DNA of 64,000 nucleotides from contig JBMCYV010000003.1 in the NCBI GenBank assembly GCA_049199595.1, positions 28,421-92,420 of the forward strand, in the 5' to 3' direction. The position numbers and the translations under genes were made by a program. Below, in pieces: positions 261 to 63,984 of this stretch. Below the pieces are notes generated by a model that was not told the DNA's origin, searched no databases, and saw only the letters and a program-made list of their open reading frames with translations. This DNA is from Candidatus Nitrosomirales archaeon. GTDB lineage: Archaea; Thermoproteota; Nitrososphaeria; Nitrososphaerales; UBA213. Position 1 is the first letter of the stretch; each line of letters starts with the position of its first letter.

Positions 261-287
261 CTCTTCATTCCCTTACAGCTTCATAGA

Positions 288-350
288 TTATAAACAGGTA
301 TGAAATATGCAGTGGGATATTCAGTATCCTATGTTATTAATTGGAAGTAT
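288..350 (-). promoter_or_regulatory. Family promoter module, copy 0: upstream box plus TATA-containing box
   Basis: In gene orientation: ATACTTCCAATTAATAACATAGGATACTGAA, then 14 nt, then TTTCATACCTGTTTATAA, then about 29 nt ending AGAG-ATG. The same architecture and spacing occur at four other family loci. Confidence 0.6.
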
Positions 351-1164: not shown

Positions 1165-1190
1165 CTCTTACATGAGAAGTACGTTCGGTT

Positions 1191-1255
1191 GTTAAAAAAC
1201 ACCTATGAAAGATATATGATGATCTTCAGTATCTTGTGTTACTAATCGGAAGTAT
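1191..1255 (-). promoter_or_regulatory. Family promoter module, copy 1
   Basis: In gene orientation: ATACTTCCGATTAGTAACACAAGATACTGAA, then 14 nt, then TTTCATAGGTGTTTTTTAAC, then about 30 nt ending AGAG-ATG. It starts only about 5 nt after the stop codon of copy 2. Confidence 0.6.
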
Positions 1256-2400: not shown

Positions 2401-2421
2401 CTCTGGTATCTTTCTTGTTAT

Positions 2422-2487
2422 GCGATTTAAGGCACTATGGATCAACACGAATAATTTTCAGTATCGTGTGTTACTAATCGGAAGTAT
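2422..2487 (-). promoter_or_regulatory. Family promoter module, copy 2
   Basis: In gene orientation: ATACTTCCGATTAGTAACACACGATACTGAA, then CCATAGTGCCTTAAATC (a weaker TATA-like box), then a spacer ending AGAG-ATG. Confidence 0.5.
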
Positions 2488-12628: not shown

Positions 12629-12793
12629 TTTTTCATAAGATTTGGTACGGGTTGTAACTCAAGTTATAGATTCTAGCAATAGAATCTGTTGTATGGTTTT
12701 ATGGTTTTCAAGTCATAGTAATGATGACATGGATAATTGTAAAGCAAATTACATACAGCTTAATAGCCTAGCGTGATTTTACTGTTCTCAGAG

Positions 12794-29658: not shown

Positions 29659-30084
29659 GCGAGGATTCGCTATCACGTCAGTCACGAATCTAACTTAACC
29701 CCATGACCATGACACCTGCAAGTACACCAAGAATATACACAAGACTCGTGATTGCTCTTCTTACATGGTTCGCTTTCTACTTGCACTATCATTTCCCTCC
29801 TACTAAATGTTGTAGAAAGTAATAAGCAGCTATGGAATAACTGTAATTGTTTTCTGTGTGGTTAACGGACTTACACTGTAACTTAATTGATAGATCTAGT
29901 TCTGGTTAGTTATGGAGCGCATTTTTCATGTTTTAATCACGTGGTGATACTATAGAATTATCAGATATCTGTATGATGCTGATTGTTGACAACCCTCTTC
30001 TCATCGATATTCCCAGATATTCAACACTTTAGCAAATCTTATGATAAAGGAATATATCCTAACCCAATCAATGAAGTGCGAGAT

Positions 30085-52089: not shown

Positions 52090-52104
52090 TTTCAAAATTT
52101 GAAC
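52090..52104. repeat. 15-nt repeat TTTCAAAATTTGAAC, copy 1 (contains palindrome TTCAAA-N-TTTGAA)
   Basis: It is identical to 54460..54474. The two copies lie in the two intergenic regions flanking the beta-helix fusion gene that separates hisF from hisI. Confidence 0.6.
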
Positions 52105-54459: not shown

Positions 54460-54474
54460 TTTCAAAATTTGAAC
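54460..54474. repeat. 15-nt repeat TTTCAAAATTTGAAC, copy 2
   Basis: It is identical to 52090..52104 and lies 100 nt upstream of hisI. Confidence 0.6.
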
Positions 54475-54901: not shown

Positions 54902-55390
54902 AATCAAAATCAAAAGTTTTGATCTAGAATTATTTCGCTGTTCCATTCATGTTCTTAATGAGCAAATCCCGAAGCATATGAACCTCCAGGTTTGTCTTGT
55001 TGACAAAATTATAGCAAAGCAGACAGTATTGCCCTATAACCACTTTGTGCCCAAGGAAGTCTACAGTAGCATCTACCATGGGAACTTCTTTTACATGTTT
55101 CTTGCAGTTCATGTCCAATTCTAGACGAACCCGAATGATAAGCGCGTGTATGTAACATGTGTGACAAATCTATATTGATAGTCCATTAACCAACTATAGG
55201 ATACTTCGCATTCACTGATAATCATAATGCAGATCCTCTCAACCACATTCCAAAAATACACTAGCCCGCAAGGAAGATTATGCCCTACAAAGAAAAGACG
55301 TAACTAGCACATCACGATTTGCAGACGAAACAAATTCGGGTCTAGCTTTCATGAACCACACCCGTAGGAATCCAGTCATTTCACGTTATG

Positions 55391-55452
55391 TACGTTCGAT
55401 TAGTAACACGAGTTACTGAAAATTATCCCAGATACTTCATGCCTGTTTATAG
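55391..55452 (+). promoter_or_regulatory. Family promoter module, copy 5
   Basis: GTACGTTCGATTAGTAACACGAGTTACTGAA, then 14 nt, then CTTCATGCCTGTTTATAG, then about 28 nt ending AGAG-ATG. Confidence 0.6.
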
Positions 55453-55479
55453 ACTACGAGCGAAAGATCAAGGTCAGAG

Positions 55480-61518: not shown

Positions 61519-62157
61519 GTGAATTCTAGGTCGCTCGTTATTGGTTCGATAGCTGTGGGCATAGCGATAGGATACATAGCTGGCTTTCTTACATACTACA
61601 ACGCATTGAGCGACGTGGAGAGCACGAATGCTACTGCGATGCAGAGCGAACTTGATAACCTGAAGGGCGAACTCGAAAAATCCAATGTGCGCTTGTCGGT
61701 ATTGAACGATGACAACGAAAAACTAAGGACAAGTCTGTCACAAATACGCGCAGATAACGAAGCTCTGCGGAAGAGCGTCGATTCCTTGCAAAAATCTATC
61801 GAGCCTAACGGTTCGCTGGCAAGGATCGAGCGCGGCATGAACTTGCTTTACATGGCATCCGAGCCCATGCCTTTTGCCGGTCAGGAACTCGTCGCCTGGC
61901 GACTATCGGTAGTTAACGAAACCGCGAAACTTGATCCAGCACTAGTGCCTACCATGCTTACTCTAGTCGACGCATGGTCCGACATAGTGCAGTTCGAGGA
62001 GAACGAGCCGGAACCCGATACGGATGCATGGAACCAATGGAATATCGAATGGCAGGTCAAGGCCCTGAAGTATATAGCAGCATACAATTCTGCCGTGTCA
62101 CAGATAATTGCGGTAATAATTCACGATGTAGATTCGCTGAAGGCTTCCCTTCCCTAG
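61519..62157 (+). CDS. N-terminally anchored coiled-coil hypothetical protein
   Basis: It has a TM segment (LVIGSIAVGIAIGYIAGFLTY) and heptad-like LDNLKGELEKSNVRLSVLNDDNEKLRTSLSQIRADNEALRKSVDSLQKS. GTG start. Confidence 0.45.
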   Translation: MNSRSLVIGSIAVGIAIGYIAGFLTYYNALSDVESTNATAMQSELDNLKGELEKSNVRLSVLNDDNEKLRTSLSQIRADNEALRKSVDSLQKSIEPNGSLARIERGMNLLYMASEPMPFAGQELVAWRLSVVNETAKLDPALVPTMLTLVDAWSDIVQFEENEPEPDTDAWNQWNIEWQVKALKYIAAYNSAVSQIIAVIIHDVDSLKASLP

Positions 62158-62951
62158 TCTTTTCTGAAAGCACTTGAAGCCATGTCAAAGTATCCCATCC
62201 TTGCAAGTGTTATGATTGCTGCAGTAATTGCAATGGGAATAATGATTATTGCCCCAAGGCTTGCCGTAAATACTATTATCGATACCATCAAGACAGACAA
62301 TGCTACAGGTATGGAAGATGCATAGCTAAGGTTCTTTGCGCTGCTTATGGCAGAGGAGGCAATGAATAATGACAGCGCATACAGGGGCAATGATACAACA
62401 TAACTATGCTCTAGTTCATTGAGCAACGAAAACGCTACTACAGGAACCGTTGCTATTGATATTCCAGACGCCAATGCAAGCATTCCGTGTCCAGGTTTTG
62501 CGCCAGCAGCTATGCTCAATCCTTCTGCTGCCAATACTGATAAAACCCATCCTAAACCAATTGATTCAGCAATACCTCCATGGTTTACCGGGAGCATGAT
62601 CAACTGTCCTGAGTTTGCATATAGGATAATGTAGAGCTGCAGAACAGCAAGTATAGTTATTATCGATGTATACTTGCTGCGCATTGCAGGCATGATGAAG
62701 GAAGCATACCATGATTGTTTTGGCAGTTGAATGATATTCTTGGTTGCATAAGCCTCATGACCCTTTGCGGAGAGCAGGTAACGCTTCTGCTCGTCCTGTG
62801 TCAAGTACTCGTTCAATTTCGAAAGGTGATGATATAATGATCCAGTGCTCATGCCTGTTTCTTGTTTAAGGTCCTTGATCGTGATCGGGCCTTTTTTGCC
62901 GATTAATTCAAGCAACTTCTGCCTCGGATTCTCCTGGGTTACTGTCAACAA
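62154..62951 (-). CDS. Winged-helix DNA-binding domain fused to a polytopic membrane domain
   Basis: The N-terminus is LLELIGKKGPITIKDLKQETGMSTGSLYHHLSKL (ArsR-like HTH). Five to six TM segments follow. It is divergently oriented to family copy 6. Confidence 0.6.
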   Translation of the reverse strand: MLTVTQENPRQKLLELIGKKGPITIKDLKQETGMSTGSLYHHLSKLNEYLTQDEQKRYLLSAKGHEAYATKNIIQLPKQSWYASFIMPAMRSKYTSIITILAVLQLYIILYANSGQLIMLPVNHGGIAESIGLGWVLSVLAAEGLSIAAGAKPGHGMLALASGISIATVPVVAFSLLNELEHSYVVSLPLYALSLFIASSAISSAKNLSYASSIPVALSVLMVSIIVFTASLGAIIIIPIAITAAIITLARMGYFDMASSAFRKD

Positions 62952-63037
62952 CAGATCTTGCTCTGCTGTGATTAAAAACGTGTCGTAAATTTTAGTTACT
63001 ATGGATCTTTAAGACCACACGAAGCCATCAAGATCTA

Positions 63038-63100
63038 TACGTCGGACTAGTAACATGGATTCCTGAATATCGTAGGACATCTTTCATACCTGTTTATAAC
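63038..63100 (+). promoter_or_regulatory. Family promoter module, copy 6
   Basis: ATACGTCGGACTAGTAACATGGATTCCTGAA, then 13 nt, then CTTTCATACCTGTTTATAAC, then 26 nt ending AGAG-ATG. Confidence 0.6.
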
Positions 63101-63126
63101 TCATGAAATAACATACATTCAAAGAG

Positions 63127-63984
63127 ATGGAAGTCAGAGCAAGGAGACTAAAGTACTCGGGAATAGCTTTAGGTGCAGTATTGATAATGGCGTTCGTTCT
63201 AGTGCAACCAACAATGCAGACAGCCAAAGCAGTAGGTGTAGAAGGACTTCCAGCATATGATGATTGCTACTTGAGCGGAGTAACACTTGGGGGTACAGTA
63301 ACTTCAACCACGACAACAACAACGACAACAACTACAACGACTACAACTACGATGGGGCAGCCTGAAGATCCAATATCAATGAACACTGTCAGAAATGGGA
63401 ACATTGTAAAGACCATTCATGCGGAGAAAGAGATCTTCACATGCCATCTTGACCAAGGTGATCTACCAATCATAGTAGATGTTACAACATATCTGGAGAT
63501 ATACGAAAACATTGCTGATAGAGAAGTCGTAGAAACCAACGCTATAGCAGTGACCTGTCTTAAGGATGAATTCACTGCAGCAGTGATTGACTGCGAATCA
63601 TATGAAGTCCCGACAACTCCAGTGCCAGTAGGTAGCAACTGCGAAGAGCTTGACTATATCACACACCCGCAAGAGATGAACACAGTTAACAAGGGCAAGA
63701 TCGCAAAGACAGTAGAATCACAGAAAGAGGTATTCTTATGTTTGCTGGATGGTGAGGTGATCTGCTTTACAAAACTAGTACAATGCACTAACACAATCAA
63801 GAAAGTAGATGTAATCCTGTTCACTGAAACATACGAGGATCTAGCAACACATGAAATAACAGATGTGCAATTCCAGTCAGCGCGATGTGTAGTTTTGATT
63901 ACTGACGAGCAGCTACAGGAGCCTGACAACGACTTGAGAGACGCCACAGTCGAGACCTGCCAGTTCTCAAGCATCGAAAACTAA
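63127..63984 (+). CDS. Secreted Cys-patterned two-module protein, family copy 6 (with poly-Thr linker)
   Basis: It has the signal GIALGAVLIMAFVLVQPTMQTAKA and a T-S-T15 linker. Module A is EDPISMNTVRNGNIVKTIHAEKEIFTC and module B is HPQEMNTVNKGKIAKTVESQKEVFLC. A loop insertion with two extra Cys is present, and the C-terminus is VETCQFSSIEN. Confidence 0.85.
   Translation: MEVRARRLKYSGIALGAVLIMAFVLVQPTMQTAKAVGVEGLPAYDDCYLSGVTLGGTVTSTTTTTTTTTTTTTTTMGQPEDPISMNTVRNGNIVKTIHAEKEIFTCHLDQGDLPIIVDVTTYLEIYENIADREVVETNAIAVTCLKDEFTAAVIDCESYEVPTTPVPVGSNCEELDYITHPQEMNTVNKGKIAKTVESQKEVFLCLLDGEVICFTKLVQCTNTIKKVDVILFTETYEDLATHEITDVQFQSARCVVLITDEQLQEPDNDLRDATVETCQFSSIEN
63301..63351 (+). repeat. Poly-threonine coding tract (ACN codons)
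   Basis: act tca acc acg aca aca aca acg aca aca act aca acg act aca act acg. Synonymous codons are mixed, so the repeat is maintained at the protein level rather than as a pure trinucleotide microsatellite. Confidence 0.85.

Follow-up and report, generated by a model that had tools for sequence, protein, structure and literature searches.

We analysed a 64,000-nt stretch of DNA (the window) from the 2.31-Mb genome of an archaeon of the lineage Candidatus Nitrosomirales (G000). The window carries several copies of a gene family predicted to encode Cys-rich secreted proteins. A Pfam search with the family proteins matched no family. A two-part upstream module precedes the gene of copy 6, and the earlier note had placed the same arrangement upstream of copies 0, 1, 2 and 5. 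We re-checked the five modules and found their positions correct. The distances from CTGAA to the ATG, which had been counted by hand as 59, 60, 56, 59 and 59 nt for copies 0, 1, 2, 5 and 6, were exact. The features are as follows.

63037..63067 (+): distal box of copy 6, 31 nt, ATACGTCGGACTAGTAACATGGATTCCTGAA; 34.5 bits with the distal-box PWM
63047..63054 (+): family-specific upstream half-site of copy 6, CTAGTAAC; conserved positions -21..-13 in 46 family upstream regions
63049-63064 (+): dyad AGTAAC-N4-GWTACT of copy 6, whose left half is the half-site CTAGTAAC
63061..63070 (+): left arm of the core operator of copy 6, TCCTGAATAT; class consensus TAYAGAAAAT; symmetry about +6.5 (r = 0.72)
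63079..63088 (+): right arm of the core operator of copy 6, ATCTTTCATA; class consensus ATnTTCCATA; ends 4 nt before the TATA box
63093..63099 (+): TATA box of copy 6, TTTATAA, 34 nt before the ATG
63123..63129 (+): AGAG-ATG of copy 6, transcript start region (about -4, predicted from the geometry) and start codon
63127-63984 (+): copy 6 gene, the ORF behind the module
55390..55479 (+): copy 5 module; arms 55414-55423 and 55432-55441, TATA box 55446-55452, ATG 55480
261..350 (-): copy 0 module; distal box 350-320, arms 326-317 and 308-299, TATA box 294-288, ATG 260
1165..1255 (-): copy 1 module; distal box 1255-1225, TATA-like TTTTTTAA 1199-1192, ATG 1164, GAA-to-ATG distance 60 nt
2401..2487 (-): copy 2 module; distal box 2487-2457, TCCATAG-type right arm, TATA box CTTAAAT 2431-2425, ATG 2400
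12654..12766 (+): degenerate arrangement of copy 3; dyad GTAACTCAAGTTAT 12654-12667, weak right arm and TATA box CTTAATA 12760-12766, ATG 12794
29820..29861 (-): non-family member of the promoter class; 32.3 bits, covariance model E = 3.1e-5

The dyad of copy 5, AGTAAC-ACGA-GTTACT, is a perfect palindrome (55402-55417). The pattern GTAAC-N3-GTTAC had one match within the window, which is the chance level. Copy 3 had been described as having degenerate boxes. Its upstream region scored 14.6 bits and the right arm is indeed weak, but the dyad GTAACTCAAGTTAT is kept about 140 nt before the ATG. The non-family member has a TATA-to-ATG distance of 34 nt, and its target is a 36-aa Cys/His-rich ORF (29682-29792, minus strand).

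Conservation and geometry of the module

The module was found upstream of 15 paralogs across the genome, and the 59-nt spacing was present in 13 of them. The PWM of the 31-nt distal box scored the 15 family sites at 34.5-46.9 bits; the next best matches reached 25.2 and 19.5 bits, and all the rest were below 16 bits. The two next-best matches (C6:89794 and C16:35082) have no TATA box at the right distance and are probably relics or chance. All 12 genomic occurrences of CATAC-N3-TTTATA precede family genes. The strict pattern TARTAACNNNNRNTACTGAA occurred 14 times in the genome, whereas its reversed control occurred 0 times. When 200 other genomes of the order were scanned, the strict pattern gave 10 single matches, as many as the control.

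The similarity among the copies could have been a by-product of duplication, and this had been named earlier as a point to check. In copies 0, 1, 2, 5 and 6, the upstream alignment extends over about 95 nt with its 3' end at AGAG-ATG and collapses 5' of the distal box. The mean pairwise identity among the 15 paralogs was 78% in the distal box and 83% in the proximal box; the spacer (59%), the stretch from the TATA box to the ATG (55%), the fourfold-degenerate sites (52%) and the far flank (32%) were less alike. The flanks beyond the boxes are thus at random-level identity, and the boxes, being conserved far above fourfold-degenerate sites and far flank, were kept by selection rather than left over from duplication. 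In one subgroup (C43:5890, C43:8111, C11:356 and C13:31526), identical sequence reaches past the box, which points to recent duplication or conversion there and would suit a functionless similarity, whether a passive remnant of segmental duplication or a product of gene conversion among paralogs. We consider this very improbable for the module as a whole. A passive remnant is contradicted by the conservation of the boxes above spacer, fourfold-degenerate sites and flanks, by the same core standing at fixed spacing before unrelated genes, and by its presence at orthologous promoters of other genera.

The preferred position of TATA-like hexamers in this genome is 30 nt upstream of the start codon (range 28-34 nt), and TTTATA(A/G) lies 34 nt before the ATG in 13 of the 15 family copies. 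The earlier proposal that the TATA box is placed as expected for a leaderless or near-leaderless mRNA therefore agrees with the geometry. Judged from these distances, the module is predicted to be a promoter with an archaeal TATA box whose mRNA has either no leader or one of 3-4 nt. The spacing had been called fixed. This applies to the distance from the distal box to the TATA box, which measured 25 nt in almost every one of 53 upstream regions, but the TATA-to-ATG distance ranges between 31 and 37 nt. AGAG adjoins the ATG even as the latter distance shifts; therefore, it is not simply an initiator element. In ordinary promoters of the genome (n = 230), the share of A is 39-49% at positions -6 to -3 from the TATA box, and CATAC is missing. 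The family promoters carry CATAC-CTG at the BRE position, which is not the purine- or A-rich composition of a BRE.

A conserved stretch of this kind might also be transcribed and act as an RNA element, such as a structured 5' UTR or a small RNA, and its short palindrome could form a 5-bp hairpin. This explanation is the least probable of those we considered. RNAalifold returned -0.92 kcal/mol with no compensatory pairs, no Rfam match was obtained at E <= 1, and the element is followed by the TATA box, whose distance to the ATG is that of a leaderless gene.

Core operator and the wider promoter class

The two boxes of the earlier note are largely the arms of one inverted repeat of the form 10-8-10, TAYWGAAWAT-N8-ATnTTYCATA. 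This core operator is 28 bp long, with two 10-bp arms, an 8-bp spacer and a 4-nt gap to the TATA box. The two arm matrices correlated at r = 0.72 about the true centre (+6.5) and at no more than 0.32 about shifted centres. The arm cores are 21 bp apart, about two helical turns, and therefore lie on the same face of the DNA. The 4-nt gap to the TATA box means that the right arm occupies the upstream portion of the BRE position. The left arm of the family promoters, TACTGAAWAT, matches the right arm at 6 of 10 symmetric positions, which is poorer than the non-family consensus.

The family promoters have an added half-site, TTAGTAAC, which is separated by 4 nt from the left arm on its upstream side. 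The result is a second dyad, AGTAAC-N4-GWTACT, by which the family promoters stand out as a sub-class of their own. The small palindrome TTAGTAA, which had been singled out in the upstream box, is not the relevant symmetric element; the dyad AGTAAC-N4-GWTACT takes its place.

At the native spacing, a PWM derived from the family promoters detected 32 non-family sites above 16 bits in the genome, and 18 of these also exceeded 20 bits. When the spacer was altered by 1 to 5 nt in either direction, 0-5 sites exceeded 16 bits and none exceeded 20 bits. Above 15 bits, the real genome contained 50 sites, compared with 1 in a Markov-simulated genome. Furthermore, a PWM built from the non-family sites alone recovered 16 family promoters, and copy 2 was the copy that scored highest with it (33.2 bits). 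Selection of the non-family set by PWM inflates the information content of its columns; the spacing control is free of this weakness. These results suggest that about 30 non-family promoters and the family promoters form one regulon-like class of about 45 promoters.

The half-site region was weakly conserved in 29 non-family sites, and the upstream half-site TTAGTAAC is the sole family-specific part of the module. The view that the module is dedicated to the family thus applies to this half-site, but the part from GATACTGAA-WAT through TTYCATA to the TATA box is common to the roughly 30 non-family promoters. The same division applies to the question of whether the box is restricted to the family genome-wide: the distal-box PWM picks out the 15 family sites, but the core is present at those non-family promoters. 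The reading of the upstream box as a transcription-factor site is consistent with dyad symmetry, fixed spacing and conservation in homologs of only 33-45% protein identity and in another genus, and the regulon that it suggests would be wider than the family.

For most targets, the distance from the TATA box to the start codon was 26-40 nt once TTG and GTG starts were allowed, and for three (C2:82169, C15:25575 and C42:6764) it was 41-53 nt. The targets of the class are mostly genes of exported or envelope proteins and include two PGI/PMI genes. An N-terminal signal or membrane segment was present in 15 of the 19 non-family targets of at least 150 aa, compared with 26% of 1,665 genes (P = 1.7e-6).

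Metagenomic homologs whose proteins are 33-73% identical retain the module blocks, and so does a second genus, G001, in which protein identity is about 43%; in both cases, the block-to-TATA distance is 25 nt. When 120 genomes of the order were scanned with the loose exact pattern GAANAT-N12-TYCAT-N6-TTW, counts outside G000 stayed at the control level apart from a small surplus in G002, which makes this pattern too weak for cross-genome use. A sequence-only covariance model performed better. At E <= 0.01, it found 44 operator sites in G000, 11 in G001, 4 in G002, 1 in G003 and 3 in G004, and none in G005-G008. The operator occurs at the PGI/PMI promoter in G000 (two paralogs), G001 and G002, and at the promoter of a xylose-isomerase-like TIM-barrel gene in G000 and G003. 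A PGI/PMI promoter is located at C7:82714. Among 41 relatives and 9 genomes of the taxonomic family, only G001 was positive for the Cys-rich family, and a protein-based contig scan found no relatives. The copy number of the Cys-rich family is about 25 in G000, 12 in G001 and 0 in G002.

Candidate regulator and mode of action

Two wHTH proteins were compared as candidates for the factor that binds the operator. The earlier note had named as a candidate a membrane-bound wHTH protein (62154-62951), which would bind the distal box and control the family. On the opposite strand, the start of this protein is 175 nt away from copy 6, the distal box is located in the shared region, and a weak wHTH match was found at residues 10-50. 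However, this protein does not track the system. It has a single-copy ortholog (60-73% identity) in seven of nine genomes of the taxonomic family, among them G006, G007 and G008, where neither the protein family nor operator sites (E <= 0.01) were found, and G002 and G003, both of which are without the Cys-rich family. In G001, it is encoded on contig C76, which holds no family gene. In addition, it adjoins only one of about 20 family promoters. We therefore regard it as an improbable regulator.

The second candidate is a family of small wHTH proteins of 65-87 aa, which have no BLASTP similarity to the membrane-bound protein. There are five copies in G000, three in G001, three in G002 and one in G003; none was found in G004-G008. 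The G000 copies are encoded at C4:38558-38800, C36:278-520, C2:80955-81185, C1:3942-4154 and C25:19974-20165. G004, a genome that is 76% complete, has three operator sites, and the small wHTH was not detected there. Operator sites are located upstream of two small wHTH genes in G000 and one in G002, and on contig C14 of G001 two small wHTH copies lie between family genes and operator sites. At the two G000 genes, the site is about 86 nt before the ATG and therefore not at the leaderless distance. Phyletic pattern, adjacency and own-gene sites, which are correlative links, point to the small wHTH family as the likely switch.

An AlphaFold model of the small wHTH (pLDDT 85) is a winged helix with the topology H-b-H-H-b-b-H, and its top Foldseek matches were HsmR, NadR, ZitR, AdcR, MarR, OhrR and AspA, with a probability of 1.00 each. 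The sequence scores were below the cut-offs, namely 17.7-21.8 bits against Pfam MarR (cut-off 24.6) and about 20 bits against NCBIfam Sta1 and Lrs14 (cut-offs 80-90). When 204 ORFs (minimum length 70 aa) were compared all-vs-all by BLAST, the recurrent neighbours of the G000 family genes were only other surface-protein families. The small wHTH genes, which were found via the operator, are absent from that neighbour search.

We assign a probability of roughly 60% to the reading that the module is a working promoter of the Cys-rich secreted-protein family, with an upstream operator of the small wHTH, and that it belongs to the wider regulon-like class. The promoter would consist of the TATA box 34 nt before the ATG and a putative transcription-factor operator directly upstream, whose promoter-proximal arm would take the place of the usual A-rich BRE. 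The binder would be a dimer or higher oligomer of the small winged-helix protein, which is specific to the lineage, 65-87 aa long and present as five paralogs in G000, and this binder may activate transcription by contacting TFB/TBP. Our assessment leans slightly towards activation as the mode of action, given an operator-to-TATA distance that admits no variation and a BRE that departs from the canonical form.

Characterised MarR-type winged-helix proteins are mostly autoregulated repressors. The same operator could accordingly be a repressor site at which the factor covers the BRE position, excludes TFB and keeps the secretome genes off until a signal arrives. The overlap of the proximal arm with the BRE position fits repression equally well, the candidate has a MarR-like winged-helix fold, and operator sites precede its own genes. 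Nevertheless, a steric block rarely needs base-pair-exact spacing, and here a change of 1 nt loses nearly all matches. Moreover, these promoters are without a good BRE, like the activator-dependent archaeal promoters for which GvpE provides the precedent (PMC2241852). We hold repression to be the less probable mode.

The invariant spacing between arm and TATA box could also have another origin. Ammonia-oxidising archaea have several TFB paralogs, and the TTYCATA arm may be the variant BRE of one of them, with the upstream arm as an extended promoter element, in a regulon resembling that of an alternative sigma factor. The proximal arm is exactly at the BRE position, where it replaces the A-rich BRE, and a class of about 45 promoters is large. 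However, the site is a symmetric inverted repeat with its distal arm 30 bp upstream of the TATA box, which argues for a dimeric site-specific binder rather than the single helix-turn-helix of TFB, and the operator follows the small wHTH family in phyletic pattern and gene position. We consider an alternative basal factor unlikely.

The activator reading can be extended, tentatively, to a combinatorial code in which small wHTH paralogs and operator variants together control the exported proteome and envelope supply of this archaeal lineage. Its targets would be RTX, BNR and NHL proteins, an S8 protease, proteins that carry the PESPIG sorting tag, and PGI/PMI, which may feed glycosylation. One wHTH paralog, specialised for promoters with the added TTAGTAAC half-site, might drive the expanded Cys-rich family, and regulator and target would have expanded together (wHTH/family copies of 5/~25 in G000, 3/12 in G001 and 3/0 in G002). 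The factor would recruit TFB to promoters without a normal BRE. We rate the complete code as speculative.

Ammonia-oxidising archaea carry out a key step of the nitrogen cycle, and to our knowledge almost none of their gene switches have been characterised. On the sequence evidence, the conserved core marks a wider, undescribed gene-control circuit of such an archaeon that acts mostly on cell-surface genes. A promoter that seemed private to one gene family would then be a specialised branch of a broader circuit. Now that an operator of exact geometry, a set of about 45 target promoters, mostly of genes for surface and secreted proteins, and a candidate regulator family have been defined, control of the cell-surface programme in these hard-to-grow archaea becomes directly testable. 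If the factor replaces the function of the BRE, the system would be a clear natural example of activator-dependent archaeal promoters.

Comparison with known systems

The module resembles the GvpE-dependent gas-vesicle promoters of haloarchaea in that a two-part element with a fixed internal spacer adjoins the BRE/TATA region on its upstream side. The GvpE UAS, TGAAACGG-n4-TGAACCAA, is located beside the BRE and is described as a pair of similar 8-nt portions with 4 nt between them (PMC2241852). The arms of the present module, in contrast, are 10 nt long, inverted and 8 nt apart, and no GvpE homolog is implicated. Both systems are rigid in their spacing from the core promoter: experiments on GvpE-activated promoters showed that activation is lost whenever the UAS-BRE distance is altered (PMC2241852), and here matches are lost at a shift of 1 nt in either direction. 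The host also differs, being an ammonia-oxidising archaeon, in which activation is proposed from the promoter architecture.

The candidate winged-helix protein is similar to the MarR/Lrs14/Sta1 regulators (Lrs14 review, PMC11841832) in being small, in having several paralogs and in having sites at its own genes. Its Foldseek TM-score to MarR-type regulators, normalised to the query, was 0.66-0.78, AspA was also among its best structural matches, and its profile matches to Sta1, Sul12a and Lrs14 were weak. Unlike members of these families, it scores far under the curated cut-offs. With 65-87 aa, compared with about 140 aa for MarR, it is without N- and C-terminal dimerisation helices, and the target-normalised TM-score was 0.4-0.5. 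In a typical MarR operator, the half-sites are closer together than the 21 bp seen here.

Shared upstream motifs are also known from a soil ammonia-oxidising archaeon, Nitrososphaera viennensis, in its response to Cu. One set of these motifs lies before genes of cell-surface and Ca-binding proteins and is conserved in related species (PMC7785015). The motifs associated with Cu limitation, TTCSGSMTTTGWACYANT and RATTTAAABATAGATTTAAATAATAAS (PMC7785015), differ in sequence from the operator described here, and that study proposes neither a dyad with an 8-nt spacer nor a regulator. Finally, the module agrees with the standard archaeal leaderless promoter in the position of TTTATAA, about 30-34 nt before the start codon. 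It departs from the standard BRE/TATA promoter in that the arm TTYCATA(C/G) replaces the A-rich BRE and a second arm is located 25 nt upstream of the TATA box.

The operator and its distance from the TATA box

A conserved dyad operator lies at an invariant distance from the TATA box upstream of about 45 genes; we refer to the promoters that share its core as the class. The best-defined members precede the Cys-rich family, whose proteins are exported, contain two repeated four-cysteine modules and gave no match in a Pfam search. The source genome, G000 (2.31 Mb, 63 contigs, 42% G+C; the window is C3:28421-92420), has about 25 family copies by tblastn, several of them attached to the C-terminal ends of larger proteins. 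The upstream regions of window copies 0, 1, 2, 5 and 6 could be aligned over about 95 nt up to AGAG-ATG, and the alignment broke down 5' of the distal box (the 31-nt upstream box). The CTGAA-to-ATG spacings counted by hand in the earlier note (59, 60, 56, 59 and 59 nt) were exact. Genome-wide, the module precedes 15 stand-alone paralogs, at 59 nt in 13 of them. A position weight matrix (PWM) of the distal box scored 15 family sites at 34.5-46.9 bits; the next sites scored 25.2 and 19.5 and the remainder below 16. All 12 genomic occurrences of CATAC-N3-TTTATA lie upstream of a family gene. The strict pattern TARTAACNNNNRNTACTGAA was found 14 times in G000 compared with 0 for the reversed control, and gave 10 single matches, the control level, in 200 other genomes of the order.

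Recent segmental duplication had been named as a possible source of this similarity. We computed the mean pairwise identity by region.

Mean pairwise identity among 15 paralogs
Far flank (-91 to -32 from the box end): 32%
Fourfold-degenerate sites: 52%
TATA box to ATG: 55%
Spacer between the boxes: 59%
Distal box: 78%
Proximal box (the TTYCATA-type stretch before the TATA box): 83%

The flanks are not conserved like the boxes, which rules out a duplication remnant as the explanation of the module. In a subgroup of four copies, identical sequence reaches past the box, a sign of recent duplication or gene conversion among these four. The same blocks are kept in metagenomic homologs (43 retrieved) with 33-73% protein identity, and in the copies of a second genus, G001 (about 43% protein identity). 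An RNA explanation for the module was rejected, given no Rfam match, no covariation and a consensus folding energy of -0.92 kcal/mol.

A core PWM running from the right part of the distal box across the spacer and proximal box into the TATA box (positions -10 to +31, 0 being the first base after GAA) was built from 46 diverse family upstream regions. Above 15 bits, it found 50 sites in the real genome versus 1 in a Markov-simulated genome. As a spacing control, both blocks were kept and the central spacer was altered by 1 to 5 nt either way. Non-family matches above 16 bits fell from 32 at native spacing to 0-5, and those above 20 bits from 18 to 0. A PWM from the non-family sites alone picked up 16 family promoters. 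The claim that the module is dedicated to the family was not supported: the core PWM recovers, besides the family promoters, about 30 unrelated ones. Only the extra half-site TTAGTAAC is family-specific; its position is conserved only weakly at the non-family sites.

The non-family consensus reads TAYAGAAAAT (-7 to +2), N8, ATnTTCCATA (+11 to +20), G, N3, TTTATWA. Its two arms are inverted copies (arm matrices r = 0.72 about +6.5 and <=0.32 about shifted centres), so that the two boxes of the earlier note are largely the arms of a single 10-8-10 inverted repeat. The arm cores are 21 bp apart, on the same helix face, and the proximal arm abuts the TATA box. The half-site TTAGTAAC forms a second dyad with the left arm, AGTAAC-N4-GWTACT. 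Among 53 upstream regions, the distance from the distal-box end to the TATA box is almost invariant at 25 nt and that from TATA to ATG ranges over 31-37 nt; it is thus relative to the core promoter, not to the start codon, that the geometry is constrained.

TATA-like hexamers cluster genome-wide at 28-34 nt upstream of the first ATG in long ORFs (peak 30 nt), which is the signature of leaderless transcripts. The family TATA box begins 34 nt before the ATG, and transcription of family genes is predicted to begin inside AGAG, about 4 nt upstream of the ATG. Since AGAG keeps adjoining the ATG when the TATA distance shifts, a simple initiator role does not account for it. In ordinary G000 promoters, positions -6 to -3 relative to the TATA box are rich in A and CATAC is lacking, and the family TTYCATAC-CTG is therefore a specific element at the BRE position.

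Genes downstream of the operator

Most non-family targets start 26-40 nt after the TATA box once TTG/GTG starts are allowed; three start at 41-53 nt (C2:82169, C15:25575, C42:6764). An N-terminal signal or membrane segment was present in 15 of the 19 targets of at least 150 aa versus 26% of 1,665 genes (Fisher P = 1.7e-6). By sequence, the exported targets include RTX-type Ca-binding repeat proteins, BNR-repeat proteins, one protein with NHL repeats, a subtilisin-like protease of 1,515 aa, two proteins whose C-termini carry a PESPIG sorting tag and a fusion protein bearing the family module. The cytoplasmic targets comprise two paralogs of PGI/PMI and a TIM-barrel protein resembling xylose isomerase (Pfam confirmed both assignments), and several small ORFs.

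Many class genes appear to use TTG/GTG starts at leaderless distance, 29-39 nt after TATA (for example C4:62041, C9:33128, C12:2026, C19:7822 and C29:10226 in G000). The extension supplies the signal peptide, and ATG-only ORF calling would truncate such genes. Two further sites of G000 lie outside the window. At C2:82169-82260, the promoter of the NHL-repeat gene is followed by CAGAG-ATGGAGACA and an 8-codon ORF, METTLRLC*, overlapping the real start codon; this resembles the remnant 5' end of a family gene that was captured along with its promoter. At C1:73833-73900 (-), three tandem 13-nt repeats, CATGGA(T/A)(T/G)T(T/C)ACG, immediately precede the class operator in front of an 87-aa coiled-coil ORF.

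Other elements in the window
29820-29861, - strand: non-family class site before a 36-aa Cys/His-rich ORF, 32 bits
29682-29861, - strand: this ORF, MIVQVESEPCKKSNHESCVYSWCTCRCHGHGVKLDS, with its promoter, between an HMG-CoA reductase-like gene and the next gene
12654-12690, + strand (region): dyad GTAACTCAAGTTAT of copy 3
52090-52104 and 54460-54474: repeat TTTCAAAATTTGAAC, flanking the NosD-fusion gene

GGAGGG stands immediately 5' of the ATG of the 36-aa ORF, which may encode a small metal-binding peptide. The copy 3 dyad is about 140 nt upstream of the ATG, rather than about 80 nt, and is followed by an 8-bp hairpin-forming repeat, AGATTCTA-GCAA-TAGAATCT; the arrangement resembles an older copy of the promoter that an insertion of about 57 nt has pushed away. 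Compared with the Cu-limitation motif of N. viennensis, TTCSGSMTTTGWACYANT (PMC7785015), TTTCAAAATTTGAAC matches in TTC...TTTGAAC but not at the SGS positions.

Distribution and candidate regulators

A sequence-only covariance model of the class was run on nine genomes of the taxonomic family (G000-G008).

Operator sites at E <= 0.01 and small wHTH genes (65-87 aa) per genome
G000: 44 sites, mostly training sequences; 5 small wHTH copies
G001: 11 sites, 3 of them training sequences; 3 copies
G002: 4 sites; 3 copies
G003: 1 site; 1 copy
G004 (only 76% complete): 3 sites; no copy detected
G005-G008: no site; no copy detected

The Cys-rich family was absent from G002, G003 and G004, so the operator either predates the family or is independent of it. 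Orthologous promoters keep it, at the PGI/PMI gene in G001 and G002 and at the TIM-barrel gene in G003. In three genera the operator stands before the PGI/PMI (SIS-domain) gene (G000 C25:12654 and C7:82714; G001 C14:4709-6649; G002 C19 about 485500-488300), and in G001 and G002 an undecaprenyl-diphosphate synthase-like gene lies beside it. This neighbourhood suggests co-regulation of the secreted proteins with the supply of sugar and carrier lipid for surface glycosylation.

The membrane-bound wHTH protein (62154-62951) proposed earlier as regulator is an unlikely one. It is single-copy, occurs in seven of the nine genomes, including G006, G007 and G008, where neither a family protein nor an operator site at E <= 0.01 was found, and adjoins only one family promoter. 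The distribution of the small wHTH genes parallels the operator counts, except in the incomplete G004. Three have operator sites upstream (G000 C4:38939 and C36:144; G002 C19), and three further G000 copies lie beside a family-fusion gene or class target (C2:80955, C1:3942, C25:19974). On G001 C14, two copies have family genes, the PGI/PMI gene and four operator sites as neighbours; the third, on C50, adjoins a family gene. The structure model is a winged helix (pLDDT 85) with MarR-type regulators and AspA as best matches; sequence profiles gave sub-threshold matches only (MarR, HTH_34, Sta1, Sul12a, Lrs14), and BLASTP showed no similarity to the membrane-bound protein. These correlations make the small wHTH family the better candidate regulator.

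Proposed mode of action and known systems

Both arms would be bound by the small wHTH protein, as a dimer or in a higher oligomeric state. We favour activation, in which the bound factor would contact TFB/TBP, because the usual BRE is absent and the spacing does not tolerate a 1-nt change. Repression, with the bound factor occluding TFB, is a serious alternative. That a TFB paralog defines the class is a lesser one, given the symmetry of the element and its reach of 30 bp upstream of the TATA box.

A literature search did not find the operator sequence, the regulon or the candidate regulator. Hardly any regulator of ammonia-oxidising archaea has been characterised, and the predicted operator and regulator are directly testable. 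The Cu-responsive motifs of N. viennensis differ in sequence from the class operator. The kind of system is already known, namely an archaeal promoter with a transcription-factor site beside the BRE/TATA region. The precedent for activation is the GvpE UAS, which no longer activates once its distance from the BRE is altered in any way (PMC2241852); strict spacing was experimentally shown there, whereas here it is inferred from matches.
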